In this document: positions 4,630 through 61,836 of the stretch, piece after piece
How positions within the stretch are numbered: the first letter of the stretch is position 1
How the letters are laid out: the number at the start of each line of letters is the position of its first letter
Source of the DNA: a virus
Lineage: Duplodnaviria; Caudoviricetes
IMG/VR virus record: IMGVR_UViG_3300042386_001217
Span: 1 to 61,836 of that record
Strand: one strand, 5' to 3'
DNA: 61,836 nt
Notes under the pieces: model-generated
Databases searched by the model: none
Seen by the model: the letters and a program-made list of their open reading frames with translations, nothing else
Told to the model about the DNA's origin: nothing
Program-made: the position numbers and the translations under genes

Positions 4630-4839
4630 TTATTCAAAAACTTCATCAATTTTGCTTTCGGCGACCGAAGTAATTCTCCAATCGTGTTGAAAACCTTTAA
4701 ACTTGTCGGTAACTTTCGCTTCAACATCGGTTACATTATAACCTCTAACAAGTTTTTCTTCTCTAATTTTTTTAATTTTTCCTGAGTTCTCGTCAATCAA
4801 ATCGTACTGAACTTTTGCAACAAAATATTTTTCGTCCAT
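4630..4839 (-). CDS. Hypothetical protein
   Basis: 69-aa ORF co-oriented with the head module. Confidence 0.75.
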   Translation of the reverse strand: MDEKYFVAKVQYDLIDENSGKIKKIREEKLVRGYNVTDVEAKVTDKFKGFQHDWRITSVAESKIDEVFE

Positions 4840-4849
4840 AATTTTAATT

Positions 4850-47842: not shown

Positions 47843-48415
47843 ATGAAAAAAGAATATAACGAGTGGTATTGGAAACTATACAGATGGTTTAAGTGGGATG
47901 CCAAACATCTTCATCGTGATATTGCTCAGGGTTTTAGAAACTTATGGAAATGGTTCCCAATCATTTGGAAAGACCGTGATTGGGATGACCATTTTATTTT
48001 TGAAGTTCTGAAATTTAAAATCAAGAATACTGCTAACTATACCGAAAAAAAACAAAGGTTTGTTGGATGGGAAAACGAAGTTCGATATATGAGAATATGT
48101 GAAACATTAATTGATAGAATTCAAAATGAATATTATCAAAGTGAACATTTTGATTATTATGATTTTGACATGAATTTTGTTCCGACAAAAAATGACCTGT
48201 ATGAAGCTGTGTTTGACGTTAAACGTGACGATACTGACCAATACATTAAAAAATACCCACACGCATTAAGAAGAGCCAAAAAGGACCCAAGATTTAAAAA
48301 TTATTTTAGTGGTGAAAGAAATGGTTATATCGCGGTAGGTATTATTAGACACGAGAAAGCAAAAAAACTACTATTTAAAATTCTTGAACAAAGAATTGAA
48401 CATTGGTGGGATTAA
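47843..48415 (+). CDS. Hypothetical phage protein
   Basis: W.PIIWKDRDWD motif; ends WWD. Confidence 0.8.
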   Translation: MKKEYNEWYWKLYRWFKWDAKHLHRDIAQGFRNLWKWFPIIWKDRDWDDHFIFEVLKFKIKNTANYTEKKQRFVGWENEVRYMRICETLIDRIQNEYYQSEHFDYYDFDMNFVPTKNDLYEAVFDVKRDDTDQYIKKYPHALRRAKKDPRFKNYFSGERNGYIAVGIIRHEKAKKLLFKILEQRIEHWWD

Positions 48416-48431
48416 AAATATTGACAAAGAT

Positions 48432-48893
48432 ATGGAAAAAGTAAAAATATACCTTGACGACGTAAGGACACCAATTAAAAATGATTGGATTGTCGTTAGA
48501 AACTATGATGAGTTCGTAGATAAAGTTGAAGAAGTTGGAATTGAAAACATTGATGCGATTTCTTTTGACCACGATTTGGGTGATACCGCAATGAAAGAAT
48601 ACTTTGATAATGTATCCCCCAACTATACATTAAACTATGACAACATTCATGAAAAAACAGGATATGATTGTGCAAAGTGGTTGGTTAACCATTTCTACAA
48701 TAAAAATCCTGAAGCAACAACAAAACATAGAATGTTTCGTGGAACAAAGATTGAATTTCCAAATGTATATGTTCATTCGGCAAATCCAATTGGAGCTTCA
48801 AACATTATGGGTTACATTAATAACTTCTTAATGAACGAAGCTCAACCACAAACCTGTGTTCGGGTTTCAATACCACACACTGTTGATGAGTAA
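48432..48893 (+). CDS. Cyclic-phosphate-processing receiver-like domain protein
   Basis: YLDDVRTP, ISFDHDLG, TGYDCAKWL, VHSANP.G. Confidence 0.82.
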   Translation: MEKVKIYLDDVRTPIKNDWIVVRNYDEFVDKVEEVGIENIDAISFDHDLGDTAMKEYFDNVSPNYTLNYDNIHEKTGYDCAKWLVNHFYNKNPEATTKHRMFRGTKIEFPNVYVHSANPIGASNIMGYINNFLMNEAQPQTCVRVSIPHTVDE

Positions 48894-48896
48894 TTA

Positions 48897-48921
48897 AAAA
48901 CCACCTTATGGTGGTTTTTTT
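48897..48921 (+). terminator. Intrinsic terminator
   Basis: AAAACCACC-ttat-GGTGGTTTTTT. Confidence 0.75.
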
Positions 48922-48942
48922 ATGTCGTTTATATTTATTGTT

Positions 48943-49641
48943 ATGAAAAAATCAAAATTGTCTTTGAATGAAGAACTAAAAACTATAAGAAGACTTTCAG
49001 GGTTAAATGAAGGTTTGGTCGATGATATCGTAGATAAACTAAAATCATTTGGTGGTTCTGTGGTTGATAAATTTGAAGATTACATTGACAGTGATTCTGA
49101 AGATAATAAAGAAGAAAAAAAAGATGGTGAAAAGTCTATGGTTGACAAGATTAAGAATTTCTTTTCCGATAATGAGGAAATTGAGACTAAAGTTGAGAAA
49201 ATTGTTTGGCCAACATGTAACTCTGATAGTAAAATCACAAGTGATTTTGATGAGATGAGAGGTTCTGAACAACACAAAGGTGTTGATATCAATGTAAATT
49301 CAGGGACAAAAATTGTTAGTCCTTTTGATGGTAAGGTTGAAGTCGCATCGTTTACCAACGACAGATGTGGTGGTATGATACAAATAAAACAGGTTGACTC
49401 AATAACAAAAGAAAAGACAAGTATGTCTGCGAAATTCTGTCATATGAAACAAATTGATGTTTCAGTGGGAGATACTGTAATGGCTGGTGAAGTAGTTGGA
49501 TTATCAGGGGGAGGTGCAAGTGATAAAGGTGCTGGAAATTCAAAAGGAGCTCACTTACATTTTGAACTTTTAGACGGGAATAGACATGTTAACCCTGAAA
49601 AAACAATAAAAGACAAAAAATTTTGTCCAAAACCAAATTAA
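48943..49641 (+). CDS. M23 family peptidase
   Basis: HKGVDI, FCHM, HLHFE, VNP; ATG 48943 follows TATTTAT. Confidence 0.9.
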   Translation: MKKSKLSLNEELKTIRRLSGLNEGLVDDIVDKLKSFGGSVVDKFEDYIDSDSEDNKEEKKDGEKSMVDKIKNFFSDNEEIETKVEKIVWPTCNSDSKITSDFDEMRGSEQHKGVDINVNSGTKIVSPFDGKVEVASFTNDRCGGMIQIKQVDSITKEKTSMSAKFCHMKQIDVSVGDTVMAGEVVGLSGGGASDKGAGNSKGAHLHFELLDGNRHVNPEKTIKDKKFCPKPN

Positions 49642-49643
49642 TT

Positions 49644-49674
49644 TTTGACTTTTAAAAAAACTTTTGTAACTTTG
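49644..49674 (+). promoter_or_regulatory. Bacteroidetes-type promoter of tRNA operon 1
   Basis: TTTG (49644) - 19 nt - TAACTTTG (49667). Confidence 0.75.
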
Positions 49675-49700
49675 TACCATATTTAATAGAAAACAAAACA

Positions 49701-49796
49701 ATGACACTCGTAAACAAACATATTGTGAAACAATTTATTCAATTCTGTCAGAATTGGTATGTTCGCACATATGCAAGTTCGGGTGACCTAGGTTAA
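49701..49796 (+). CDS. Putative attenuator leader peptide 1 (MTLVNKHIVKQFIQFCQNWYVRTYASSGDLG)
   Basis: 31-codon ORF between promoter and terminator; contains all ten amino acids of the downstream tRNAs; its 3' part overlaps the antiterminator strand. Confidence 0.8.
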   Translation: MTLVNKHIVKQFIQFCQNWYVRTYASSGDLG

Positions 49797-49856
49797 TAAA
49801 AAACAGCCTAAGATAAACAACCAACCCGAACTCACAAGGTTCGGGTTTTTTGTTTT
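49776..49856 (+). promoter_or_regulatory. Antiterminator/terminator pair (attenuator 1)
   Basis: Terminator AACCCGAAC(49823)-loop-GTTCGGGTT plus U-tract; competing AGTTCGGGT (49776-49784) pairs with ACCCGAACT (49824-49832). Confidence 0.8.
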
Positions 49857-49857
49857 A

Positions 49858-49869
49858 GTTCTTTGACAT
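49858..49869 (+). promoter_or_regulatory. boxA-like antitermination site
   Basis: GTTCTTTGACAT, identical at 51995 and 57803. Confidence 0.65.
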
Positions 49870-49884
49870 ATTGGTAACCAAAAT

Positions 49885-49957
49885 GGACAGGTAGCTCAGG
49901 TGGTAGAGCACTGGACTGAAAATCCAGGTGTCGCGGGTTCAACTCCCGCCCTGTCCA
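49885..49957 (+). tRNA. tRNA-Phe(GAA)
   Basis: CTGGA-CT-GAA-AA-TCCAG. Confidence 0.95.
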
Positions 49958-49966
49958 CAAATACAT

Positions 49967-50043
49967 TGGTGATTAGCTCAGTTGGTTAGAGCACTACGCT
50001 GATACCGTAGGGGTCACAGGTTCAAGTCCTGTATCACCAACCA
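49967..50043 (+). tRNA. tRNA-Ile(GAT)
   Basis: CTACG-CT-GAT-AC-CGTAG; CCA encoded. Confidence 0.93.
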
Positions 50044-50048
50044 TAAAT

Positions 50049-50119
50049 TACCCTTTCGTCTAATGGCAGGACAAGTGGTTTTGGTCCACTGAATGGAGGT
50101 TCGAGTCCTTCAGGGGTAA
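50049..50119 (+). tRNA. tRNA-Gln(TTG)
   Basis: AGTGG-TT-TTG-GT-CCACT. Confidence 0.92.
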
Positions 50120-50125
50120 CAATAT

Positions 50126-50200
50126 GACCTTATAGCTCAATTGGCTTAGAGCACTACACTTTTAATGTAGGGGTTTCGGGTTCGAGTCCCGATGGGGTCA
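50126..50200 (+). tRNA. tRNA-Lys(TTT)
   Basis: CTACA-CT-TTT-AA-TGTAG. Confidence 0.94.
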
Positions 50201-50202
50201 CA

Positions 50203-50327
50203 AAGGTTGATTGGGGAATCCCACAATGTTAACGTGTCGGTAGTTCGTTGTTGTGGGGGAGTTTGAACTGTCATAGTAATGCCAATCGTAAAAGGAGTCG
50301 TCCACTGAACCATCTTCTCTTTACCTT
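50203..50327 (+). ncRNA. Putative structured RNA between tRNAs
   Basis: Closing stem AAGGT..GGGGAA / TTCTCT..ACCTT; inner CCCACAAT/GTTGTGGG; GC-rich, no credible ORF. Confidence 0.4.
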
Positions 50328-50331
50328 ATTT

Positions 50332-50403
50332 AGTTCCTTAGCTCAGCGGGAGAGCACTTGGCTTACATCCAAGGAGTCGTTGGTTCGAATCCAACAGGAA
50401 CTA
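50332..50403 (+). tRNA. tRNA-Val(TAC)
   Basis: CTTGG-CT-TAC-AT-CCAAG. Confidence 0.93.
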
Positions 50404-50466
50404 CGGAGTTTCCCCACACTTCCACATGGCAGTCGGTCCGTTAATCCGATGAAGTGGGGAATATTT

Positions 50467-50548
50467 GCCAGTATCGCATAGCGGCAATTGCACTTGACTG
50501 TAAATCAAGCCTCTTTTGAGTTCGTAGGTTCGAGTCCTACTGCTGGCA
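50467..50548 (+). tRNA. tRNA-Tyr(GTA)
   Basis: CTTGA-CT-GTA-AA-TCAAG; long variable arm. Confidence 0.93.
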
Positions 50549-50558
50549 CAAAATATAA

Positions 50559-50632
50559 GTCCATATGCCTGAGTGGTTCAAAGGGGCGGTCTGCAAAACC
50601 GTTATTCGTTGGTTCAAATCCAACTGTGGACT
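50559..50632 (+). tRNA. tRNA-Cys(GCA)
   Basis: GCGGT-CT-GCA-AA-ACCGT; U73. Confidence 0.92.
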
Positions 50633-50642
50633 CAAAATACAT

Positions 50643-50715
50643 GGTGTCTGTAGTTCAGAGGAAGAACACTTGGTTGTGGTCCAAGATGTCGTGGGTTCGA
50701 TTCCCATCAGTCACC
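50643..50715 (+). tRNA. tRNA-His(GTG)
   Basis: CTTGG-TT-GTG-GT-CCAAG; G-1:C73. Confidence 0.92.
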
Positions 50716-50722
50716 CAAAATT

Positions 50723-50794
50723 GGTTCTTTAGTTCAATGGACAGAACATGTGGCTACGGACTACAAAATGAGGGTTCGAGTCCTTCAGGAACCA
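50723..50794 (+). tRNA. tRNA-Arg(ACG)
   Basis: TGTGG-CT-ACG-GA-CTACA. Confidence 0.92.
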
Positions 50795-50802
50795 CATTAT
50801 AC

Positions 50803-50873
50803 AGGCCAGTAGTGAAAGGGTATCACCACAGTCTCCAAAACTGTTATTGGCGGTTCGAATCCGTCCTGGTCTG
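50803..50873 (+). tRNA. tRNA-Trp(CCA)
   Basis: ACAGT-CT-CCA-AA-ACTGT; G73. Confidence 0.92.
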
Positions 50874-50919
50874 CAAAACAATTTTTGGTATTGTCAAGTT
50901 TTTTCTTTAACTTTGTAGT

Positions 50920-51462
50920 ATGGAAAAAGAAATAATATCTGAAATGGTTGATGATATGATTAATAGTTTTGGACTTTTCCAATCTGAAAACGAGAATTTC
51001 AAAACTACATTCAGTTATGAATTTTTGGGATATTGGAACAATAAATTAAGTATTGCTTTAGTTACTGAAGTTGACTGTATGGAAGTTTATCGTAATAACG
51101 ATAATGTACCTGAATTTCAGTACATTAGACGTAAAATAGACAAGGATATCAAAACCATCGAGAAATATGGTATTGTAGATAATCACCCATACACTCACAC
51201 ACACTTAATAAGAAAAAATTTTGAATTTTGGAAAAATACTGAATTGAAAAAATTGAAAAAAAGGGTTAAAGAACGTTTTGGTAAATATGTTCACGCAATC
51301 AGAGTAGATTTTGATAGTAACTATACTTTGTTTCCACGACTCAAAGTAATATTCAGTAGAGAATATTCAAATTGGGGTAATACGAGATATGACGCAATTA
51401 GAGAAATTCAAAATTTAATGTCTGAACTTGGATTCTCTAAACAGATAAGACTTAATTGGTAA
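50920..51462 (+). CDS. Hypothetical protein
   Basis: 180 aa after TAACTTTG. Confidence 0.75.
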   Translation: MEKEIISEMVDDMINSFGLFQSENENFKTTFSYEFLGYWNNKLSIALVTEVDCMEVYRNNDNVPEFQYIRRKIDKDIKTIEKYGIVDNHPYTHTHLIRKNFEFWKNTELKKLKKRVKERFGKYVHAIRVDFDSNYTLFPRLKVIFSREYSNWGNTRYDAIREIQNLMSELGFSKQIRLNW

Positions 51463-51498
51463 TTTTGCCGTTTAACTTTTTTGCCGTATCTTTGTAGT

Positions 51499-51975
51499 AT
51501 GGAAGTTCAATATATCAGCAGCGTTAAAGGTATCAAAGGTTATGCGGAATCACAAATCGCAAAGGGTGAAACCAATGACTGTGTTGTTAGAGCATTTGCA
51601 TCTTCATTTGAAATGGAATACGACGAAGCTCACAAGATTGTTGCAACCGAATTCAAGCGTAAACCAAGAAAAGGTACATTTGGTTTTGCAACAAAAATGA
51701 ACTTGTTCGCACAAAACGAAACCAAATTCAACGATAAGGGTGTAACTAAAATTTCACACGAACACAACACCATGTGTTACTACGTAAATGTTAAAGGTGT
51801 GAAAACCTTGAGAAATTGTACCTTGAATTACTTCCTTAAAAATTATGGTCAGGGTACTTACGTTGTTATTGTTCGTGGTCATGCGTTTACAGTTAAAGAT
51901 GGTGCGGTGATTGGTAACTCAGAAGATGCAAAAAAGACAAAGAAACACATCGTAGGTGCTTGGAAAATAGGTTAA
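51499..51975 (+). CDS. Hypothetical phage protein (NDCVVRA...GHA motif)
   Basis: ATG 51499 after TATCTTTG; Cys/His motif pair. Confidence 0.78.
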   Translation: MEVQYISSVKGIKGYAESQIAKGETNDCVVRAFASSFEMEYDEAHKIVATEFKRKPRKGTFGFATKMNLFAQNETKFNDKGVTKISHEHNTMCYYVNVKGVKTLRNCTLNYFLKNYGQGTYVVIVRGHAFTVKDGAVIGNSEDAKKTKKHIVGAWKIG

Positions 51976-52017
51976 TACTTTCTACCTTTGTAAGGTTCTT
52001 TGACATCTTGAAATAAT

Positions 52018-52102
52018 ACCGAAGTGGCGTAAAGGTAGCCGCGTTAGTCTTAGGAACTAATGTCTTCGTGACGTGTGGGTTCGATTCCCACCTTCGGTAC
52101 CA
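52018..52102 (+). tRNA. tRNA-Leu(TAG)
   Basis: TTAGT-CT-TAG-GA-ACTAA; long variable arm; CCA encoded. Confidence 0.93.
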
Positions 52103-52105
52103 AAT

Positions 52106-52186
52106 ATCAGTGTGGTGTAACGGTAGCCACGGTTGTCTCAAAAGCAACTCCCTCACGGGGTGTAGGTTCGATTCCTACCACTGATA
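52106..52186 (+). tRNA. tRNA-Leu(CAA)
   Basis: GTTGT-CT-CAA-AA-GCAAC; long variable arm. Confidence 0.9.
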
Positions 52187-52191
52187 CAAAT

Positions 52192-52273
52192 TGGCAGGTA
52201 GCCTAGAGGCCAGGCAGCAGACTGTTAATCTGCGACTTAAATGTCTACGTGGGTTCGATTCCCACCCTGTCAG
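52192..52273 (+). tRNA. tRNA-Asn(GTT), atypical (long variable arm, G3:U70)
   Basis: GCAGA-CT-GTT-AA-TCTGC; variable GAC-TTAAAT-GTC-TAC; acceptor TGGCAGG/CCTGTCA-G. Confidence 0.85.
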
Positions 52274-52372
52274 CAACGTGAGACTAAGACACAGAAACAA
52301 TATCAGGTCAGTGGAGGGGAAACCCGTAGAAGCGTTTTAACACTTGATAAGTAACGGATACCTCACCATTTT

Positions 52373-52488
52373 GGTCAACTACGTAATGCGGGAAGGTACC
52401 CAAATCCTGAAGACACTACGGTCCATAACCATTTGGACGCGAGACGTTGTAAGGTTGTCTAGTGCAGGTTCGAGTCCTGTGTTGACCA
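52373..52488 (+). ncRNA. tRNA-like RNA with expanded body
   Basis: Acceptor GGTCAAC/GTTGACC-A and T-arm GCAGG-TTCGAGT-CCTGT; no canonical D or anticodon arm. Confidence 0.65.
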
Positions 52489-52687
52489 AGAGAGCTAACC
52501 CAGCTTCACAATGAAGGCTAATACCGTCGGAGTGGGGGTGACGGTCAGGAAAGACTGACTTTTTTAAATAAAAGTTTGGCAGATTAAAAAATCTGTTGTA
52601 ATTTTGTATCAGAATATGGGGGGACGGTTGTTGGTGAAGTTGGTGGACCGTCCTCCCTGTCTGTTAAGTTATTTGAAATAAAGATAT

Positions 52688-52825
52688 TGATAGTGGTCAC
52701 TCTTACAATGAAAGTCGACAAAGTAATTGTAAGGTTCATAGTGTTCAGCACCCTCTGCCAAGGCCTTGAGAAAACTCAAAAGAAGCAGTTAAGATTGGGA
52801 CGAGACGGGTATCCCATCACTATCA
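52688..52825 (+). ncRNA. Putative multi-stem ncRNA
   Basis: Closing stem TGATAGTGGT/ATCACTATCA enclosing CTTACAAT/ATTGTAAG, TTGAG/CTCAA and TGGGA/TCCCA. Confidence 0.55.
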
Positions 52826-52831
52826 TAATAT

Positions 52832-52924
52832 AGTCAGGTGGCGGAATGGTAGACGCTCGCTTCAAGGTGCGGATAGTCAACGAAATGTAAAGCTAACGTA
52901 CAGGTTCGAATCCTGTCCTGACTA
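52832..52924 (+). ncRNA. tRNA-like repeat copy 1
   Basis: AGTCAGG TGGCGGAATGGTAGACGC ... ACAGGTTCGAATCCTGT CCTGACT A. Confidence 0.75.
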
Positions 52925-53002
52925 CGAATGTTCAATAGTGGTAATTACGGGTCCGCCTCCTTGCCTGGAAATATACACTGGACAAATTAAGGGAGGCAAC
53001 AT

Positions 53003-53115
53003 AGTCAGGTGGCGGAGAGGTAAACGCCCCGAATAGTGAAACGGAGTGGAATAAACCGCAGTATAGTTGAGATACACACAAGGTCCACATGCAGGTTCGA
53101 GTCCTGTCCTGACTA
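53003..53115 (+). ncRNA. tRNA-like repeat copy 2
   Basis: AGTCAGG TGGCGGAGAGGTAAACGC ... GCAGGTTCGAGTCCTGT CCTGACT A. Confidence 0.75.
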
Positions 53116-53257
53116 CAGACTCTCATCTATAGCTGTGTAGAGAACTGATGAGAATTGTTGGAGGACACAGACCTCACGAACAGTGGTTTAGGGCGAAGGT
53201 AGCACCCCTATCACGAAGAGTACCAAAAACCAAATGGTTTAAAAGCTCTTCAAACAT

Positions 53258-53334
53258 AGTCAGGTGGTGGAATGGTTAACACACCCACGTCGTGGACTAA
53301 GCGCAATTTACAGGTTCGAATCCTGTCCTGACTA
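53258..53334 (+). ncRNA. tRNA-like repeat copy 3
   Basis: AGTCAGG TGGTGGAATGGTTAACAC ... ACAGGTTCGAATCCTGT CCTGACT A. Confidence 0.75.
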
Positions 53335-53534
53335 CACGTTCCGAGACACTACAACGGATAGTGTGCCCAACACGATGAGAAACGGAGTGATGACCGTATG
53401 GGAACCTACATTGGAGTGGATGGGGATAACTCCTGAGCAAGTCAGCTCGACCTCGTAAGGACAAATGATTATTCCTAACCTAGTAATAGGGACAGCCATA
53501 ACACTTGTAAGTTGGATAGAATAGAGTGTTACAT

Positions 53535-53644
53535 AGTCAGGTGGTGGAATGCTAAGGGTAGAGTGATGATTGATTGGAAGACATTAAGTTGACACCCATT
53601 CGATACGTAGCTTAATACAGGTTCGAATCCTGTCCTGACTACCA
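53535..53644 (+). ncRNA. tRNA-like repeat copy 4 (CCA encoded)
   Basis: AGTCAGG TGGTGGAATG ... ACAGGTTCGAATCCTGT CCTGACT ACCA. Confidence 0.75.
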
Positions 53645-53646
53645 AT

Positions 53647-53886
53647 ATGGACACAAAATATATTATTACTGAATCAGGAAACATTGTTGTGTTTGGTCCC
53701 GTATTCAATCATTCGGATTTCAGACATATGAATCCTGTAAGAGCTGGATTTATTTCTTTTGGTGTAAATAAAGACGGAAATCCAACCTGTTCTTGTTATG
53801 GTAAAAGTATTAGTTTGGGTATGGAATCAGACCCAGAACTTGATACAAGAATTGCAAAATTTCAGTTGGATTTAATGGATTATTAA
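53647..53886 (+). CDS. Hypothetical protein inside the tRNA-like array
   Basis: 79 aa; F.H......AGF........CYG.S.SL...S pattern. Confidence 0.75.
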   Translation: MDTKYIITESGNIVVFGPVFNHSDFRHMNPVRAGFISFGVNKDGNPTCSCYGKSISLGMESDPELDTRIAKFQLDLMDY

Positions 53887-53910
53887 AAATAATTATCCTA
53901 TAATTATGTC

Positions 53911-54027
53911 AGTCAGATGGCGAAACGGAAGACGCTTAGTCCAGTGAAGTGAAAATTATAAGTAACAGAGGACGAATACCGTAACTGCAGTAATTCGGTT
54001 CTACAGGTTCAAGTCCTGTTCTGACTA
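53911..54027 (+). ncRNA. tRNA-like repeat copy 5
   Basis: AGTCAGA/TCTGACT (compensatory change), TGGCGAAACGGAAGACGC, ACAGGTTCAAGTCCTGT. Confidence 0.75.
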
Positions 54028-54029
54028 CA

Positions 54030-54520
54030 AAAGACCCCACAATTAACAGAAGTACTCGTCTGTTATGGTGTGTGAACCCGACTGGAAGTCTTCGGGGCTA
54101 TGGGGGATAGATACACAGAGTGAAACACATATAACCTCTTATAAACGGGGTTCATTGGGAAGGGGAAGTTCTTCTTAAGTATGTGGGAATCTCAAAACAA
54201 ACAGAGTTCCCCAATTATGGATTAAGGGGGTGAGGGGCTTTAATTAGTCGTAATAGAATCCACAAGTTGTAGAAATACTGGACAATTCTACAATATACAC
54301 TCATATCTTCCGAGTGAGACTCCCACGTAACTATGGGGGTAGGGTCGAAGATGTCCTGAGGGTAGCACTGAACGCTGTATTGAAAACTCTATGACTAATC
54401 GATTAGATAAGTAAATATGGACGGAGTGTGAGAGTACAGGTCTGACGTGGATGGTTACTAAGTCCTATCGTATCGTAGGAATATCGTCAGAAATATATTA
54501 CGGATAATATCTAACAACTT
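54030..54520 (+). ncRNA. Putative structured non-coding RNA region
   Basis: ~490 nt, relatively GC-rich, no ORF in the track, many stems (TAACAGA/TCTGTTA, TTGTAGAA/TTCTACAA, ACACTC/GAGTGT, TCTGACG/CGTCAGA). Confidence 0.45.
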
Positions 54521-54567
54521 AAAGGGTACTTCTGTAAATCCGCAGAGATGATACAGTACCCTTTTTT
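54521..54567 (+). terminator. Terminator-like hairpin ending the RNA region
   Basis: AAAGGGTACT...AGTACCCTTTTTT. Confidence 0.6.
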
Positions 54568-54608
54568 ATTTTCTTTGGTTACTTTGTATTTATCATTAAG
54601 TTCAAGGT

Positions 54609-55550
54609 ATGCCGAAAGTAAACGGAGTCGATACTTCAAGTATCAGTAAGGTAAATGGTATTTTAAAAACAAATATATCCAAATTAAATGGGATATCTGG
54701 TTTATTTGATGCATCACCAACACCAACGCCAACAAATACTCCAACTCCAAGTATTACACCGACAAGAACTGTTACACCAACGGTGACTCCTTCAATAACA
54801 CCAAGTATTACACCGACAAGAACTGTTACACCAACGGTGACTCCTTCAATAACACCAAGTATTACACCGACAAGAACTGTTACACCATCAGTTACACCAT
54901 CAATAACACCATCAGTTACACCATCAATAAGTGTTTCACCAACAAGAACACCAACTGTTACACCATCAGTTACACCATCAATAAGTGTTTCTCCAACAAG
55001 AACACCAACTGTTACACCAACAAGAACTCCTACCGTTACACCTACCGTAACACCTTCACCATCCGCTGCTGCATGTAACGATGTTAATGCAACATATGGT
55101 TCAACAGGTCAAGAATTTACTTACTGTCCACAAAACGTAACTGTTTCGTTAAATGGTACTAACTTGTCAAACGCAACTACAGTATTCGCATTTGGTTATG
55201 GTTGTGACCCTAATTTCTTGGCACCTGATGGATATTATGGTGACGGTTCAGGTAATTATGAATGGTCTGGAGGTGTGTTAACCCCGAATCCTACAATAGT
55301 TTTCGTAACTTGTAATACTGTAAACCTTTATACCGCACCTATGGCTAATGACATTTGTAATTGTATAGCACCTAACATACCATTTGGTCTTGATAGTACT
55401 CCATTAACATCCGCAAGTGCAATCTACACAGATTGTTGCACGGCAAATTTAGCAGGACCTGGTTGGTATTCAGAAAACTGTGGTACGGGTAGTATTGCTC
55501 GTGAATGGGATGGTACAGCATTTATTGGAGCACCATATACATGTCCATAA
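54609..55550 (+). CDS. Thr/Pro-repeat protein with Cys-rich C-terminal domain (possible virion fibre/decoration)
   Basis: KVNG repeats, long TPSIT/TPTVT linker, Cys-rich tail; TATTTAT upstream. Confidence 0.75.
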
Positions 55551-55586
55551 TTTGATATCTTAACTTTTTTATTTTAATTTTGTATT

Positions 55587-56180
55587 ATGAAATATACTGT
55601 AAACACCTATGGTTGGAGCATGGAAGCTCTTGGTAAATCACTAACTGACGAACAAGTTCAACTTATCAAAGAAAAAATGGTTGAAAAAGGTTATGATGAA
55701 ACATCAGAAATAAGATTTGAAGTTGAAGACTTTATGGAATTTGACCATTGGGATGGAGATTTGTTCCATGTTTCAAAAGCAATAGATAACCAAACATTAC
55801 ATTTTGAAATTGAAGATGAAAACGGAGAAAAGGTCGTTGCGTTTGGAATTGAAGATATTTCAAGACCATATGATGAAGATGGAAATGAAAAATATGAGTA
55901 TGATGAATTTTCTGCTTGGCCAAATGAAGAAACTTCAACAAACATTTGGTTAACAATCGATGAAAGTAAGGGTGGAGTTTTCACATACGAGATTGAATCT
56001 GAAGATGTTCCAAAACCTGAAGACTTTTCATACTCTATTGGTTGTGTTTCAACACCCGAAGGTGATTGGGATTATATCAACAATATCTATTTCAAGGGTC
56101 AAGAATTGGAAATAGTTGATTTCTTGGACAATACAGGAAAAGCGGCAACAATAGAAATTTTCACGTTAGAAGATATCTAA
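55587..56180 (+). CDS. Hypothetical acidic protein
   Basis: 197 aa after TAATTTTG. Confidence 0.78.
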   Translation: MKYTVNTYGWSMEALGKSLTDEQVQLIKEKMVEKGYDETSEIRFEVEDFMEFDHWDGDLFHVSKAIDNQTLHFEIEDENGEKVVAFGIEDISRPYDEDGNEKYEYDEFSAWPNEETSTNIWLTIDESKGGVFTYEIESEDVPKPEDFSYSIGCVSTPEGDWDYINNIYFKGQELEIVDFLDNTGKAATIEIFTLEDI

Positions 56181-56189
56181 TTGTTAAAA

Positions 56190-56263
56190 GGCGAGGTAGC
56201 TCAATTGGTCAGAGCGTCTGTTTCATACGCAGAAGGTTGTCAGTTCGATTCTGACCCTCGCTA
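56190..56263 (+). tRNA. tRNA with CAT anticodon (elongator Met; Ile2 not excluded)
   Basis: TCTGT-TT-CAT-AC-GCAGA; lacks initiator features. Confidence 0.88.
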
Positions 56264-56303
56264 CAAATTGATTATTAACAAATATTAACTTATATTTTAT
56301 TTA

Positions 56304-57572
56304 ATGGAATCTTTATCAAAAGTAGGAAACGGAATCGTGGGGTCCGAAATCATTAAAATCTCACAACAAATCAAGGAAATTGCGAAAAATAAACCCGTAG
56401 CAAATTTAACCATAGGTGACTTTGATTCAAAAAAATGGCCAATACCATTTAGACTCAAACAACTTATTGAAAAATATTACGAACAAAACTATACAAACTA
56501 TCCGAACTCACAAGGTGAATTGTCGTTGCGTGAAGCGGTAAGTAATTACTTGAACAGTCAATACGAGTTAAACTATAAACCAAGTGAAATTCTTATTGGT
56601 GGTGGTGTTAGACCGTTAATCTACACAGTATACAAAGGTACTGTAAATCAAGGTGAATCTGTGATTTATCCAGTACCATCTTGGAACAATAACCACTATT
56701 GTTTTCTTCACGGAGCAACCAAGAAAGAAATTGAATGTAAACCTGAAAATTCATTCTTTCCTACGGTTAGTGATATTGAAAATAGTATTGATGATTCAAC
56801 ATCTTTGATTTGTATTTGTTCGCCACAAAACCCAACAGGTAGGGTAATTCCATCAGAAACGTTAAAAGGTATTTGTGAAGTCATTATTAAAGAAAACAAG
56901 TTAAGAGCAACACAGGTAAATTCAAGACCAATATATCTTTTCTTCGACCAAATTTATTCCGATTTAACAGATAAAGAATTATTCACACACCCATTGTATG
57001 TTTGTCCTGAAATAAAAAATTATTTGATTTGTGCTGACGGAATTTCAAAATCATTAAGTGCTACAGGTATTAGAGTTGGTTGGATTTTTGGACCACAAGA
57101 TGTTATTGGTAAATTAACCGAAATATTTTCACACATTGGAGCTTGGGCACCAAAACCTGAACAAAACGCAGTTGCGGAATTTTTAAATGAAGAAAGGGAA
57201 GTTCACAAAGTTCATACAGAATTTACACGTGGTGAGTTCATGTATTATAGTTCATTGATTTGTGATAAAATTGAAGAATTAAAAGAAAAAGGTTTTAGAG
57301 TTGATTGTCAAAGACCTGAAGGTGGAATTTATATTTCAGTTTATTTTGATTATGCAAAATCATTTAGCTCAAGCGAAGAATTTGTTTATCATTTAATTAA
57401 TACCTATGGACTTGGAATTGTACCCTTTGAATTTTTTGGTTCAAAAGAAAACAGAGGATGGTTTAGAATCTCTTTAGGTAATATTGATGACGAAAATATT
57501 GATGAAATAATAGATATTATTGAAAATTCAGTATTAAAACTACATCAATTTGTAAATTCAATGGTATTTTAA
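56304..57572 (+). CDS. PLP-dependent aminotransferase class I/II
   Basis: CSPQNPTG, DQIY, GISKSLSATGIRVGW, FRIS. Confidence 0.92.
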   Translation: MESLSKVGNGIVGSEIIKISQQIKEIAKNKPVANLTIGDFDSKKWPIPFRLKQLIEKYYEQNYTNYPNSQGELSLREAVSNYLNSQYELNYKPSEILIGGGVRPLIYTVYKGTVNQGESVIYPVPSWNNNHYCFLHGATKKEIECKPENSFFPTVSDIENSIDDSTSLICICSPQNPTGRVIPSETLKGICEVIIKENKLRATQVNSRPIYLFFDQIYSDLTDKELFTHPLYVCPEIKNYLICADGISKSLSATGIRVGWIFGPQDVIGKLTEIFSHIGAWAPKPEQNAVAEFLNEEREVHKVHTEFTRGEFMYYSSLICDKIEELKEKGFRVDCQRPEGGIYISVYFDYAKSFSSSEEFVYHLINTYGLGIVPFEFFGSKENRGWFRISLGNIDDENIDEIIDIIENSVLKLHQFVNSMVF

Positions 57573-57622
57573 TTGACTTTTTTTAATTTTGACTATATTT
57601 AATTAAAAAACAAAGACTTTCG

Positions 57623-57694
57623 ATGCAAATTATAAAAAATATCACCATAGGCACAGAGACAGGGGCTGATACTTCACTAGTGAGGGTGGGATGA
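57623..57694 (+). CDS. Putative attenuator leader peptide 2 (MQIIKNITIGTETGADTSLVRVG)
   Basis: 23-codon ORF; core TIGTETGADT matches the downstream Glu/Thr/Gly/Gly/Asp/Ala tRNAs; its end overlaps the antiterminator strand. Confidence 0.75.
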   Translation: MQIIKNITIGTETGADTSLVRVG

Positions 57695-57746
57695 TATTGA
57701 ATAAAAATATTTAAAATCAGAACCCACCCACAAGGTGGGTTTTTTT
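57684..57746 (+). promoter_or_regulatory. Antiterminator/terminator pair (attenuator 2)
   Basis: Terminator AACCCACC-cacaa-GGTGGGTT plus U-tract (57721-57746); competing GGGTGGG (57684-57690) pairs with CCCACCC (57723-57729). Confidence 0.75.
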
Positions 57747-57753
57747 ATTTTAA

Positions 57754-57814
57754 TTTGTTTTTATCAAAAAAAAGTAGTAACTTTGTATCATAGTTGAGAA
57801 TGGTTCTTTGACAT
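57754..57814 (+). promoter_or_regulatory. Bacteroidetes-type promoter and boxA-like site
   Basis: TTTG (57754) - 20 nt - TAACTTTG (57778); GTTCTTTGACAT (57803). Confidence 0.65.
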
Positions 57815-57828
57815 ACGAGAAAAAAAAT

Positions 57829-57900
57829 GGCCCTTTCGTCTATCGGTAAGGACAGGTCCCTTTCACGGACCAGAGACGGGTTCGATTCCCGTAGGGGCTA
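57829..57900 (+). tRNA. tRNA-Glu(TTC)
   Basis: GGTCC-CT-TTC-AC-GGACC. Confidence 0.93.
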
Positions 57901-57904
57901 CAAA

Positions 57905-58000
57905 TGAGTTATATCTTCAGGTACCCGTACCGCTAACGTGGGGCTAAGTAAGATACAATTTCGTACTGCGGGAAGTAGAATGCCTGTCTGAGATAACTCA
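57905..58000 (+). ncRNA. Putative rod-like ncRNA between tRNAs
   Basis: Nested stems TGAGTTAT/ATAACTCA, CAGGTA/TGCCTG, CCCGTA/TGCGGG. Confidence 0.5.
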
Positions 58001-58005
58001 AAATT

Positions 58006-58079
58006 GCCTCCATAGCTCAGTTGGCCAGAGCAGCTGATTTGTAATCAGCGGGTCGTTGGTTCGAATCCGACTGGAGGCT
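58006..58079 (+). tRNA. tRNA-Thr(TGT)
   Basis: GCTGA-TT-TGT-AA-TCAGC. Confidence 0.94.
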
Positions 58080-58089
58080 CAAAATAAAT

Positions 58090-58160
58090 CGCGAGTTGGT
58101 GTAATGGTAACATATTGGGCTCATAACCCAAAGTTCCGAGTTCGAGTCTCGGGTTCGCAA
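58090..58160 (+). tRNA. tRNA-fMet(CAT)
   Basis: C1:A72 mismatch; GGG/CCC anticodon stem. Confidence 0.9.
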
Positions 58161-58205
58161 CTAAAGTGTCTTGGTGGACAAAATATGTTTGATTCTACCA
58201 AAATT

Positions 58206-58277
58206 GCGGGTGTCGTATAAAGGCTATTACTCCAGCCTTCCAAGCTGGAGATGGGAGTTCGATTCTCCCCACCCGCT
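58206..58277 (+). tRNA. tRNA-Gly(TCC)
   Basis: CCAGC-CT-TCC-AA-GCTGG; U73. Confidence 0.93.
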
Positions 58278-58280
58278 CAA

Positions 58281-58480
58281 AAAGAACCCTTCCTTACAGA
58301 AGACAGATTAGCACTGTTGAAAGAGACCTTGGCTTCGTGGGAGTAGCTACCCAATGAAGTAATCATGACCTGAGGTATTCTGTGATGGACCCTGCTCTAT
58401 GGTGCACTCATACCAGGTGAACAGTAAATTATGTTCAGTCAAATCCACAACTACGGTGAGCGTAGAAGGAAAGTTTCTTT
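58281..58480 (+). ncRNA. Putative ~200-nt structured RNA between the Gly tRNAs
   Basis: Closing AAAGAA..TTCCTT / AAGGAA..TTCTTT; inner GCTTCGT/ATGAAGT, TGAACA/TGTTCA, CTACG/CGTAG. Confidence 0.5.
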
Positions 58481-58484
58481 TATT

Positions 58485-58557
58485 GCGAGAGTAGCTCAGT
58501 TGGTAGAGCATCACCTTGCCAAGGTGAGGGTCGCGTGTTCGAATCACGTTTCTCGCT
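58485..58557 (+). tRNA. tRNA-Gly(GCC)
   Basis: TCACC-TT-GCC-AA-GGTGA; U73. Confidence 0.94.
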
Positions 58558-58777
58558 CAATGAGTAAGAGATACTCATCAGTCTTTCATCCAAGACTCAT
58601 TTAACAATGGATGGGGATAAAAAATGTCCACCGACGGACTTTCGATTCGGAACTACGGATGCAAGACCAGCTTCGCCGACGTAAAGGTTGACTTTTTTAT
58701 GGGGGATGCTCCACAGGTTTTTGAAATAGAAAAAACCGAAATGACTACTCACCAGTAATCTCAAGGTGGGGAATAAC

Positions 58778-58849
58778 GGTCCGTTAGTTAATCGGCTATA
58801 ATCCTGCCCTGTCACGGCAGTGTGGCGGGTTCGACTCCCGCACGGACCG
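58778..58849 (+). tRNA. tRNA-Asp(GTC)
   Basis: CTGCC-CT-GTC-AC-GGCAG; G73. Confidence 0.93.
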
Positions 58850-59040
58850 CAAATTTCAGTTAGGGTCGAGCCACGTTGTGCCACGACTGAAAAATAGGTA
58901 AAGAAGGATTAGAGGTGGCCGTGACTACTCTTTACCAAAAAATTAAAATGAGCTTCCCTACACCATTCGGTTAGTGACTAGTTAAAGGGGGACAAAAGTG
59001 GTACACAAGTCCACGGCTCATTTTTTTTATATTTATAGAT

Positions 59041-59127
59041 ATGTTAAAGAAATTTTGGTCATATCTCACATTCATTGAATACCACAGAATGAAGTCTATG
59101 ATACATTCAGGATGGGGTAAATTCTAA
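59041..59127 (+). CDS. Small hypothetical protein (MLKKFWSYLTFIEYHRMKSMIHSGWGKF)
   Basis: 28-codon ORF 4 nt after TATTTAT (59030-59036). Confidence 0.5.
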   Translation: MLKKFWSYLTFIEYHRMKSMIHSGWGKF

Positions 59128-59128
59128 T

Positions 59129-59202
59129 GGGCTGTTAGCTCAGATGGCTAGAGCACCTGCCTTGCACGCAGGGGGTCGAGAGTTCGAGTCTCTCACGGTC
59201 CA
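59129..59202 (+). tRNA. tRNA-Ala(TGC)
   Basis: CCTGC-CT-TGC-AC-GCAGG; G3:U70, A73. Confidence 0.94.
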
Positions 59203-59232
59203 CAATTTTAAATTAACAGATATTTATTAAAC

Positions 59233-60876
59233 ATGATATTGTCTGAAGGACGTAAAGAAGACGTTTACAATAAATTCAAAGGTAAAATCGATTCTGAAAG
59301 AAAATTAAATTCATTGATTGAACCTAAATCATTCTACGACATTGTGTTGGAAGAACCTTTCATGGAACAAACCAACTACAAATATTTGGAACCATTACTT
59401 ACTCAACATTTTTTATGGAATGATGTTTATCCAAGACAGGGTAAAGAACTCGAAGAGTTGGAACCAAACATGGTTTCCACTGCAAGGGATTATTTCATAA
59501 ACATCAGAAGAACAATTGCAAACATCATCCCAAAACTAGAATTTTTTGATAGAAATAAAGACAAATACCAAAAAAAAGATTTCAAACAATATATTGGTTG
59601 GGATTTTGATAGAGAGTTTTTGGATTTGACTGATGGGTTGATGAGAGCTCAGAATGAAAAGAAAGAAAAAGAAAAAGAGAGAAAAGAAATTGTAAAAATT
59701 TACGAAGATAACAGAGTGTTAATTGTAAAACCTTTATCACACGTTGCATCCTGTTATTACGGAGCAGGAACAAGATGGTGTACGACCATGAAAGGTCAAC
59801 CTGAGAGATTCAAACAATATACTAGAGACGCAAATCTTTATTACATCATTGTTAAAGGTGTACCATCGGATAATAAATTCTACAAAATAGCCATTAATCC
59901 AAAAAAAGGTCAAATGTTGAGAAATTCAACTTTTTATGATGCGTCAGATAACACCATGTCAGCATCAGAAAAAGAATTATTCTTTTCTTTGATACCACAA
60001 GAAGCATCGGCAAAACTACAAGAGGATATTAATGAAAGTTTCAAATCTCAGTGGAAACGAGATATGATAGACCAAATCGAAGATTTGACAACTATCCAAC
60101 AACGAACTGTAATAAAATTATCAAAAACAAAAGAATTAACTTTAATATTACGTTTTGACGATTGTCAACCTGTAGATTTTGAAGATGAAACAAACGATGA
60201 TGATTATATCAGATTTACATGTAGATATAGATTATCACCATATCCTTACGAGGTTATAGGTGCGACGAGTGTTTTTGATGACGATGGATATATTTTAGGT
60301 ATTATAGAAAACAAACGTACACACATCCAATATAATTTGGTGTTTGAATCGGACCCTCGTTTTGAAATTAATCCTGAAGATAAAGGAGATACACATTTAA
60401 ATGATGACTTTGAAATAAATTTTTCGAGTTCAGTTGAAAAAGACAAATTTGACAGTACAATGGATTTCTTGTTAGAAAGAACCATGCAAAAATTAAAATA
60501 CAAAGTTCAAAATTCAGAAAATCTAAAAGTTTATATGCAAAAATTAGGTTTAAAGGTACCAGCACAAAAATACGGAACAGGATTTTCATTTAGTAAACCA
60601 ACAGAAAATATTATAAAATTTTATGAGGTAATGGACAGTATACCTGAAGGGGAACCAATAAAGAGGGTGGATTTCATGGAAAAGGCGGGTATGGTTAAGA
60701 AAAAACCTGATGGAACATATGTCAATAGAGGTGGAGGTAATATCACAATCAAAGGTTATTTTTCATCGTGGTTTTCAGCATTAAACGCGGCAAAAATTAT
60801 CGAATATGTCGGAAAAAAAGGGTTCAAAAAAGGACCTCGTTACGAAGAATTTAGAGAAAAAATATTTTCAAAATAA
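59233..60876 (+). CDS. Hypothetical protein with YGAGTRWC domain
   Basis: KPLSHVASCYYGAGTRWCTT; TATTTAT upstream. Confidence 0.8.
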   Translation: MILSEGRKEDVYNKFKGKIDSERKLNSLIEPKSFYDIVLEEPFMEQTNYKYLEPLLTQHFLWNDVYPRQGKELEELEPNMVSTARDYFINIRRTIANIIPKLEFFDRNKDKYQKKDFKQYIGWDFDREFLDLTDGLMRAQNEKKEKEKERKEIVKIYEDNRVLIVKPLSHVASCYYGAGTRWCTTMKGQPERFKQYTRDANLYYIIVKGVPSDNKFYKIAINPKKGQMLRNSTFYDASDNTMSASEKELFFSLIPQEASAKLQEDINESFKSQWKRDMIDQIEDLTTIQQRTVIKLSKTKELTLILRFDDCQPVDFEDETNDDDYIRFTCRYRLSPYPYEVIGATSVFDDDGYILGIIENKRTHIQYNLVFESDPRFEINPEDKGDTHLNDDFEINFSSSVEKDKFDSTMDFLLERTMQKLKYKVQNSENLKVYMQKLGLKVPAQKYGTGFSFSKPTENIIKFYEVMDSIPEGEPIKRVDFMEKAGMVKKKPDGTYVNRGGGNITIKGYFSSWFSALNAAKIIEYVGKKGFKKGPRYEEFREKIFSK

Positions 60877-60958
60877 TTTTTTAAAAAATTGTTGCTGGTA
60901 TACCCAAAATAACTGATTTTTGGTATATTTATTGGACGAAGGTAAATCCCCAAACTTA

Positions 60959-61129
60959 ATGGACCCAAATCAACTAAATAACGAAACTATGCCCGAAGTG
61001 GTTGAGCAGAATTTGACTGCACAAATCGAAGAACAGGTCGAGAAAATACTCGACTTCAATTACGATATGTTCGGTTCTTGGGAAGATGAATGGGATAACT
61101 CACAAGGTGATATTATTCTATTTATCTGA
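60959..61129 (+). CDS. Small acidic hypothetical protein
   Basis: ATG 60959, in frame with the track ORF. Confidence 0.5.
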   Translation: MDPNQLNNETMPEVVEQNLTAQIEEQVEKILDFNYDMFGSWEDEWDNSQGDIILFI

Positions 61130-61308
61130 ACTGTTCAATTACTAACCAAACGGTCATTAGTCCACACAATAAAGTGAAGGACCAGCCAATTATTTTGTAA
61201 GAAAATTCTATTTGGTCTCTACGTTTTCCTTGCCAATCAAAATTGTTATCCATTTTTATTTATAAGTAGTTGTTTAATTCAGAATTTTGTTTTAATTTTG
61301 TACCGAGT

Positions 61309-61719
61309 ATGACATATAAACATCAATTCAAACGATTTCTACAAAAGTTAGCGGTCGACATATCACGAAGATTGGACCCTGCCAATATTGAAAAAAGTTC
61401 TCACGGTAGAGAATGTTATTCAATTTGTCAGAAATTGGTTAACAACCCAAACACTGAACTTATTGTTTCACCTTTGTCTTCAAAGAAATACATTAAATGT
61501 GACGACTCAAATATTTTTGTAATTCTTCAGGGTAGAACGGTACAAATTATTAATCACATCTATAGTTATTCTATATTGACGGATGAAAAAACTTGGGAAA
61601 AAATAATGAACCTTTTTAACCAAGAACAAGAAAAAAGATGTATTAGACTTGAGTCTGAAGCCGAAGTGAACATAAAAAAATCGTTGAAGAATATAAGTAG
61701 TAATTTAGACAAAAAATAA
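61309..61719 (+). CDS. Hypothetical protein
   Basis: ATG 61309 after TAATTTTG. Confidence 0.72.
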   Translation: MTYKHQFKRFLQKLAVDISRRLDPANIEKSSHGRECYSICQKLVNNPNTELIVSPLSSKKYIKCDDSNIFVILQGRTVQIINHIYSYSILTDEKTWEKIMNLFNQEQEKRCIRLESEAEVNIKKSLKNISSNLDKK

Positions 61720-61720
61720 T

Positions 61721-61836
61721 ATGAAAAGTAGTAATTTTAAATCAGCCTATCGTTTTGGTGGAACCGTGTTCATTCTCACAGTTCTAATATTTTCACTAAT
61801 CTTTGGATTCTTATTCAAAGGATGTAGTTCAGACAA
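61721..61836 (+). CDS. Partial membrane or lipoprotein (runs off the right edge)
   Basis: MKSSNFKSAYRFGGTVFILTVLIFSLIFGFLFKGCSSD... Confidence 0.6.
   Translation, partial: MKSSNFKSAYRFGGTVFILTVLIFSLIFGFLFKGCSSD

Follow-up and report, generated by a model that had tools for sequence, protein, structure and literature searches.

What do a 23-codon open reading frame (ORF) and an intrinsic terminator accomplish between an aminotransferase gene and a cluster of tRNA genes in a phage genome? The stretch of DNA in which this question arises, referred to here as the window, is the whole of the IMG/VR virus record IMGVR_UViG_3300042386_001217, 61.8 kb of AT-rich phage DNA (61,836 nucleotides, nt) in which ARAGORN predicts 23 tRNA genes. 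The initial annotation had read the locus at 57574-59203 as the second of two tRNA-sensing attenuators in the window, and our analysis supports this reading, mainly through the conserved architecture, the covariation of the alternative RNA helix and the link between leader codons and tRNA content. We consider it likely that a ribosome-mediated leader-peptide transcription attenuator gates the phage tRNA cluster, and this attenuator probably senses, by way of feedback, how much capacity there is to decode the codons that the cluster tRNAs read. Its elements are as follows.

57574..57603, + strand: promoter-like site P1, with TTGAC at 57574-78, a 16-nt spacer and TATATTTAAT at 57594-57603
57584-57591, + strand: TAATTTTG, a sequence of the window lying inside P1
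57623..57694, + strand: leader ORF of 23 codons encoding MQIIKNITIGTETGADTSLVRVG, with an ATG start and the stop TGA at 57692-94
57644..57673, + strand: sensor core, codons 8-17, T I G T E T G A D T
57684..57729, + strand: antiterminator, in which GGGUGGG (57684-90) pairs with CCCACCC (57723-29) and two inner helices are enclosed
57719..57746, + strand: intrinsic terminator, stem AGAACCCACC / GGTGGGTTTT (57719-57743), loop CACAA, run of seven T (57740-57746)
57754..57785, + strand: second promoter-like site P2, TTTG-N20-TAACTTTG, of the Bacteroidota type
57803..57815, + strand: boxA-like GTTCTTTGACATA, 26 nt 5' of tRNA-Glu, with the core GTTCTTTGAC at 57803-57812

The coordinates that had been given for the leader, the pairing arms, the terminator, P2, boxA and the tRNAs are all correct in the window, and they suggest the following mechanism. 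Transcripts started at P1, or arriving by read-through from the aminotransferase gene, would carry the 23-codon leader, whose translation could perceivably have two outcomes. First, if translation proceeds smoothly, the ribosome at the UGA would cover the GGGUGGG arm, CCCACCC would pair with GGUGGG, the terminator would form and the polymerase would stop before boxA. Second, if the ribosome is held up at a codon for Thr, Gly, Glu, Ala or Asp within codons 8-17, at least 12 nt 5' of the arm, the arm would stay free and the antiterminator would form; with no ribosome loaded the arm would likewise be free, and the antiterminator, being the more stable structure, would prevail. The antiterminated polymerase would then pass boxA, presumably with Nus-type processivity, and transcribe the Glu-Thr-fMet-Gly-Gly-Asp(-Ala) tRNAs, to which P2, lying 3' of the terminator, would add attenuator-independent expression. 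The outcome would be a negative feedback of decoding capacity on tRNA synthesis. The geometry of the locus is consistent with this scheme, in that a ribosome at the stop codon would mask the arm and one stalled at the matched codons, 12 nt off, would leave it free; leader translation, stalling, the coupling of ribosome and polymerase, the function of boxA and the direction and size of the regulation are what we infer from the sequence.

The pairing of GGGTGGG with CCCACCC, postulated in the initial annotation, holds up in RNA folding. The segment 57675-57732 adopts the proposed antiterminator at -20.9 kcal/mol (z -5.4), with none of 200 shuffles as stable, and the same structure stays the one of minimum free energy when the full terminator is included (-24.6). 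The terminator alone reaches -14.6 kcal/mol (z -4.9). A single base separates the arm from the TGA stop, the DNA from there to the terminator stem is A/U-rich, and the arm's complementarity score is matched by only 3 of 1000 shuffles. For an upstream 1:2 hairpin, which would act as an anti-antiterminator or pause structure, the leader alone folds no better than its shuffles (z -0.7, 50 of 200 as good). We therefore picture a two-state design, in which untranslated RNA would read through; and, since the RNA alone folds as the antiterminator, read-through would be the default state.

Comparison with relatives provides the first line of evidence that this structure is conserved as an RNA. At least 12 leader families, labelled A-K, share the architecture in IMG/VR and metagenome phage contigs; the first leader of the window (leader 1, 49701-49796) belongs to family A and the one considered here (leader 2) to family B, which a common arm, GGAGATGG, joins to families D, E and J2, whose loci, like those of B, carry homologous leader ORFs of 22-24 codons. 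All 15 members of an alignment of B, D, E and J2 attenuators have an arm that ends 1 nt ahead of the stop, and the loop from arm to arm measures 27-32 nt. The window has G-C at helix position -1, where 14 of the 15 have A-T, and G-C at position -3, where 12 of the 15 have A-U; that is, two A-to-G changes in the arm are each matched by a T-to-C change in the 5' arm of the terminator, as expected of compensatory double changes. The pair at position -3 exists in the antiterminator only and is unpaired in the terminator, so that compensation there is specific to the alternative helix. Over the whole set the arm sequence differs from family to family (AGTTCGGGT, GGTTCAG, AGTTCAGGGTT, ATAGTCCG, GGGCTC, ATCTCGG), each arm fitting its own terminator. 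The number of shuffles per 1000 that reach this own-arm complementarity is 0 in A, 3 in B, 20 in C, 6 in D, 0 in H, 13 in J and 3 in J2, with weaker values in F (78), I (52) and K (63).

The same changes bear on the idea that the ORF encodes a small peptide acting in trans, the RNA structures being incidental or merely terminating its mRNA. A metagenome scan for B-like leaders returned 26 further distinct B/D leaders, none of them with the window's GGGTGGG arm, and in all 26 the core GTPATE[GA]DTSKVEMG is invariant, as a functional peptide would have it. However, the peptide sequence is conserved neither between families nor between the window and its closest relatives, and the third-position bias is weak. 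Moreover, the arm changes of the window turn the peptide end VEMG into VRVG, with the terminator arm compensating, so that what is conserved at this place is the RNA and not the peptide. We thus regard a trans-acting peptide as extremely improbable.

Another account is that an ordinary terminator ends the mRNA of the upstream neighbor, a class I/II aminotransferase gene, that the ORF in front of it arose by chance and the GGGTGGG repeat has no function, and that the tRNAs are transcribed from P2. The neighbor in question is:

56304-57572: class I/II aminotransferase gene (PF00155, E=1.2e-48)

This account gains from the good and conserved Bacteroidota-type promoter that follows the terminator, and from codon statistics that are modest within the window (see below). 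The distribution of the element nevertheless argues against it. A search with the aminotransferase protein recovered 41 IMG/VR loci, four distinct ones of which (L001, L005, L027 and L037) preserve the arrangement aminotransferase, leader, terminator, promoter, boxA and tRNA-Glu cluster, with leaders of the form M[KIR]TI[FN]IFGTPATE[GA]DTSKVEMG. Among 27 distinct contexts 3' of the aminotransferase gene, a B-type terminator (at +143 to +147) together with boxA occurs only in the 4 that have this cluster; the other 23, all without the cluster, lack the element. In 18 of the 27 there is no terminator within 300 nt at all, and in 3 a small lipoprotein-like gene with its own terminator follows. 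Conversely, the D, E and J2 elements sit behind unrelated genes. A natural leader swap is found in L025, where another leader, MKPINKNMISKRQPQISICWYPRITHSSVIGESNIS, rich in P, I, C, W, Y, Q, M and S, stands behind this aminotransferase gene and the tRNAs Pro Ile Cys Trp Tyr Gln Met Ser come after it; this locus (4670-5100) also has a boxA variant, GTTCTTTGAAAT. The element thus travels with the tRNA cluster and not with the aminotransferase gene. The leader ORF is itself kept in relatives, the difference in length (23 versus 22 codons) preserving the frame, and the ORF, the position of its stop and the arm are all conserved, with the compensatory changes described above. When to this are added an antiterminator stabler than expected by chance and a swap test that ties leaders to their own tRNA sets (see below), a chance ORF before an ordinary terminator becomes a very unlikely explanation.

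If the locus is an attenuator, what does it sense? The tRNA genes that follow boxA are:

57829-57901, + strand: tRNA-Glu(ttc)
58006-58080, + strand: tRNA-Thr(tgt)
58090-58161, + strand: initiator tRNA-Met(cat)
58206-58278, + strand: tRNA-Gly(tcc)
58485-58558, + strand: tRNA-Gly(gcc)
58778-58850, + strand: tRNA-Asp(gtc)
59129-59203, + strand: tRNA-Ala(tgc)

Codons 8-17 of the leader read ACC ATA GGC ACA GAG ACA GGG GCT GAT ACT, and 9 of the 10 amino acids that they specify are represented in this set; GGC and GGG address both Gly isoacceptors, which confirms the match as it had been described. The last of these codons, T17, stands exactly 12 nt 5' of the antiterminator arm, and in both leaders of the window the matched run stops at the predicted limit of the ribosome footprint (R22 in leader 1, T17 in leader 2). 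Attenuator 1 is much the stronger case: its 20-residue matching run is reached by 0 of 13,890 windows, and its sensor has 20 of 21 codons read by its own tRNA set against 1 of 21 by the other set, as compared with 9 of 16 and 5 of 16, respectively, for leader 2. The methionine tRNA of the cluster shows, by eye, a C1/A72 mismatch and three G-C pairs beside the anticodon loop, which we take to be the marks of an initiator tRNA.

The claim that such a codon match argues against chance stands at the level of the leader families; the statistics of the window taken singly are weak. For the comparison across families, the sensor was defined as all codons that begin 12 nt or more 5' of the arm, such that a stalled ribosome leaves the arm free (the cut-off follows from the size of the ribosome footprint), and the tRNA set as every tRNA on the same strand as far as the next predicted terminator or the locus end. 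Ten family representatives entered the test (A, B, C, D, F, H, I, J, J2 and K), G being left out for want of a clear arm and E because its arm was mis-set. The own tRNA set decodes 162 of 207 sensor codons as opposed to 53 of the 98 remaining codons (Fisher P=1.9e-5), or 146 of 207 as opposed to 46 of 98 under strict wobble (P=6.4e-5). When leaders and tRNA sets were swapped, the observed sum for sensor codons was never reached in 200,000 permutations (P<=5e-6), in contrast to the non-sensor codons, which served as the negative control (P=0.35); a 12-family version with hand-set boundaries gave P=1e-5. These pooled P values overstate the independence of the data, because the families are partly homologous. 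At the level of amino acids, the table of those in the sensor or not (rows) against those with a tRNA present or not (columns) reads 100 and 28 over 10 and 62, and 75-100% of each cluster's amino acids occur in its sensor.

The comparative check suggested in the initial annotation can also be made within families, with the same outcome. B relatives have tRNA-Pro(tgg) in the cluster and CCA in the leader, and the window has neither. In family A, tRNA-Ser(tga) is present in the clusters of L166 and of L169/L246, with a Ser codon in the sensors at positions 11 and 17, respectively; the window copy, L167 and L168 have neither the tRNA nor the codon. In the same family tRNA-Met and internal ATG codons come together in L240, L206 and L207. 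The rare codons TTA, ATA, AGA and GGA of the D leaders have their counterparts in Leu(taa), Ile(tat), Arg(tct) and Gly(tcc). The leaders of L168 and L169 contain two Ala codons in clusters where ARAGORN finds no tRNA-Ala; L168 was dropped as a counter-example, as Rfam detects a weak tRNA there (29.5 bits) with a TGC anticodon loop. Leader content thus tracks tRNA content across 10-12 families as well as within families (Pro, Ser, Met).

These data also have to be held against an attenuator that is coupled to translation and yet has no tRNA specificity, responding instead to ribosome availability or translation rate or acting as an infection timer, with the codon likeness owed to another cause such as shared ancestry. 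Several features would suit it: no codon is used more than a few times, the codons at the N-terminal end go unmatched, the naked RNA defaults to read-through and the families are homologous, so that part of the association is inherited. What it does not account for is that the match is confined to the codons from which a stalled ribosome would free the arm, as the swap test demonstrates (P<=5e-6 versus 0.35 elsewhere), that Pro, Ser and Met tRNA gains come with matching codons, and that rare codons of the D leaders meet their tRNAs. We consider an attenuator without tRNA specificity to be unlikely.

Several observations weigh against a tRNA-sensing attenuator. Judged alone, the window's own codon match is modest: against 14,282 windows of equal length drawn from 49 long ORFs of the stretch, the best 10-codon window of leader 2 (9 of 10) has P=0.016, its longest matched run (8) P=0.011 and its whole-ORF codon-level match (10 of 22) P=0.19. 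The cluster reads neither codons 2-7 (Q I I K N I) nor the ATA at codon 9. Of the nine matches, three (ACC, ACT and GCT) depend on expanded U34 wobble, U34 reading U/C, and because of this requirement strict wobble leaves 6 of 16 sensor codons read. Each sensed codon occurs only 1-4 times, without long runs of the his or trp kind, and the leader has no Shine-Dalgarno sequence, the absence of which is usual in Bacteroidota. Variable sites in leaders are distributed over the three codon positions as 15:21:31, a mild third-position bias (P=0.054). Families G and E have no clear arm, with 515 and 941 of 1000 shuffles, respectively, reaching the observed complementarity (for E with a mis-set arm), and some D-type leaders precede a protein gene, with tRNAs about 1.4 kb further on. 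Finally, P2, which had been raised from the outset as a caveat, is conserved at this position in L025 and in the loci of families B and D; polymerase can reach the cluster without encountering the attenuator, which in these two families would therefore gate a fraction only of the tRNA transcription.

How widespread is the arrangement? A scan for boxA and its flank yielded at least 113 loci. Where a tRNA lies within 60 nt downstream of boxA, 28 distinct upstream regions carry a terminator, and in 27 of these 28 an ATG-started ORF of 22-37 codons ends 21-41 nt before it. Eight boxA-tRNA regions without a terminator represent an internal boxA after another tRNA or gene, including the one at 51995 in the window. 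This third exact boxA of the window (51995-52004, region 51983-52017) follows a promoter-like TACCTTTG, precedes the tRNAs Leu, Leu and Asn and has neither leader ORF nor terminator. A DNA search of the GenBank phage collection gave tRNA-sized matches only and no syntenic relative. In cellular genomes, none of the 52 places with the exact boxA 20-mer shows the leader-terminator-tRNA arrangement, one of them having a tRNA-like gene at +181. The architecture was thus seen in phage contigs only, the cellular check having covered the exact boxA 20-mer.

The relatives show further peculiarities. A D-type leader with its terminator and boxA stands ahead of a promoter and a protein-coding gene in L184, L190 and L193; L184 and L193 have their first tRNA about 1.45 kb on, and L190 has none within 2 kb. 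Many leaders (in A, C, D, E, F, G, H, I, J and K; for example 49701-49796 and L155-L170) have [L/K]-H-[I/M] at codons 6-8, which corresponds to a nucleotide motif, AAACATAT or TTACATAT, and some of the clusters lack a His tRNA (D, E, H). Suppressor-type tRNAs are found in L167 (reverse-complement coordinate 384, anticodon CTA, 'Pyl' in ARAGORN) and in L034 (at 1536, TTA, 'Stop'), and hint that some of these phages read through or recode stop codons.

Upstream of the leader, the initial annotation had singled out the box TAATTTTG. The box is present in the window, but it is not conserved; the conserved elements are TTGAC at 57574-78 and TATATTTAAT at 57594-57603, and the pattern TTGA[CT]-N16-17-TATATTTAAT recurs in L001, L005, L027 and D-family loci, which makes P1 a putative promoter. 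A shared ATATTTAAT stands just 5' of the leaders in families A, B, D and H (in the window at 57594-57603 and 49682-49691), in family A alongside a TAnnTTTG box lying a few bases further 5', and may belong to the promoter or to the 5' untranslated region. Sites of the form TTTG-N17-23-TAnnTTTG number 26 in the window as compared with 7.0 expected, a count reached in 0 of 100 shuffles. The boxA 20-mer, in turn, has 52 places in species-representative genomes, nearly all of them in Bacteroidota. The host is thus probably a member of the Bacteroidota, given the excess of the TTTG promoter pattern and this distribution of the boxA 20-mer. In 2 of 10 Bacteroidota loci checked, the 20-mer lies just 5' of the 23S rRNA; gut-virome boxA matches, which had been considered as rRNA leaders, were rejected, as they proved to be tRNA regions. 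The window contains 3 exact copies of GTTCTTTGAC, all of them 23-27 nt 5' of the tRNA that opens a cluster, and in families A, C, E, F, H and J boxA follows directly after the terminator (3-16 nt).

Downstream, the cluster itself contains further structured RNA. The hairpin and T-tract that had been seen before tRNA-Ala are present in the form of a multibranched fold:

58945..59018, + strand: multibranched RNA fold with a 10-bp closing stem, followed by a run of eight T (z -2.5, 2 of 200 shuffles as stable)

A terminator scan gave no call for this fold. It is possible that it serves as an internal terminator or as a processing element before tRNA-Ala, and this gene may be partly insulated from the rest of the cluster by the structured element and its T-run. 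The long spacers at 57902-58005, 58279-58484 and 58851-59025 are structured RNAs (fold z -2.1 to -2.9). One of them contains an Rfam freshwater-1 match (58381-58443) at 66.6 bits, just under the gathering score of 72, and metatranscriptome contigs match parts of the spacers (57917-57983 and 58345-58469) at 90-99% identity. In four RNA runs, represented by contigs only and with shares of 0.06-0.07, tRNA-like parts and some spacers are covered and 57300-57700 is uncovered. DNA of the phage is present in 14 lake-water DNA runs.

Elsewhere in the window, three tRNA-like genes with long insertions (52832-52925, 53003-53115 and 53258-53334) share a common 5' end, TAGTCAGGTGG; ARAGORN makes one 4-base anticodon call among them, and Rfam scores them at 36-46 bits. 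An ORF of 313 amino acids at 54609-55550 consists of long Pro/Thr/Ser-rich repeats followed by a Cys-rich C-terminal part.

The closest known counterparts of the proposed attenuator are the trpL, hisL, thrL, ilvL, leuL and pheL leaders, which are ribosome-mediated attenuators of amino-acid operons. Like these, the phage element combines a short ORF and regulatory codons with an intrinsic terminator, a competing antiterminator and a stop codon at which a ribosome completing the leader would block the antiterminator, and, like the thr and ilv leaders, it would sense several amino acids at once. It differs in that the amino-acid operon leaders regulate biosynthetic enzymes, as opposed to tRNAs here, and use runs of codons, whereas the phage leaders contain up to 12-15 amino acids, once or a few times each; the phage elements also lack the 1:2 hairpin, and their hosts are probably Bacteroidota. 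The corresponding Rfam models remain below their gathering scores, Trp_leader (RF00513) with 27.5 bits at 57661-57748 versus 41, and Thr_leader (RF00506) with a sole match of 33 bits versus 55, near the first tRNA cluster on the minus strand. In the pheST attenuator, with its pheM leader, a synthetase is under leader-peptide attenuation and one amino acid is sensed; there, too, a component of translation senses its own cognate tRNA, although the regulated gene is a synthetase and the sensed unit one amino acid, where the phage element has tRNA genes and a set of codons. T-box elements likewise sense tRNA status and choose between terminator and antiterminator ahead of translation-related genes, but they bind uncharged tRNA directly and without translation, unlike the translated ORF that would be the sensor here; the T-box model gave no match at E<=1 in 48000-61836. 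A tRNA cluster is also carried by phage T4, and clusters of the T4 type resemble this one in their structured spacer RNAs and in tRNAs that supply decoding capacity during infection.

The core GTTCTTTGAC resembles the boxA of rrn operons, whose Nus-dependent antitermination is treated in PMC4807359 and PMC5725501; the phage boxA-like sites differ in preceding tRNA clusters, always 3' of the attenuator's terminator. A survey of leader peptides from 2010, in the passages covered, lists them from Proteobacteria, Actinobacteria and Firmicutes only and leaves tRNA genes unmentioned (PMC2965389). Full-text literature, with subscription journals largely outside its scope, yielded no leader-peptide attenuation of tRNA genes or of phage tRNA clusters. 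As far as this literature goes, the present case would, if confirmed, be the first of tRNA genes under leader-peptide attenuation, and it would tie the supply of tRNAs directly, in a closed loop, to the demand for decoding at the ribosome. It would also imply that transcription-translation coupling and leader-peptide attenuation operate in Bacteroidota hosts.

Taken together, we lean towards the broader view that large freshwater and marine Bacteroidota phages carry programmable tRNA homeostats, the leaders of which would sample nearly every downstream tRNA and raise the matching transcription, and that leaders and tRNA sets co-evolve, a new tRNA being followed by its codon. Phage tRNAs can counter tRNA-targeting defenses, as put forward in PMC11555353, and if the homeostat view is true, the limitation sensed could come from a poor host pool or from host defenses that cleave or deplete tRNAs. 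In practical terms, 22-37-codon ORFs and boxA sites in phage tRNA regions would deserve annotation as regulatory elements and not as hypothetical genes, and the leaders, as natural multi-codon sensors of tRNA availability, are possible reporters. The question of why phages carry tRNAs would also become testable, since the leaders would themselves state which codons the phage treats as limiting.

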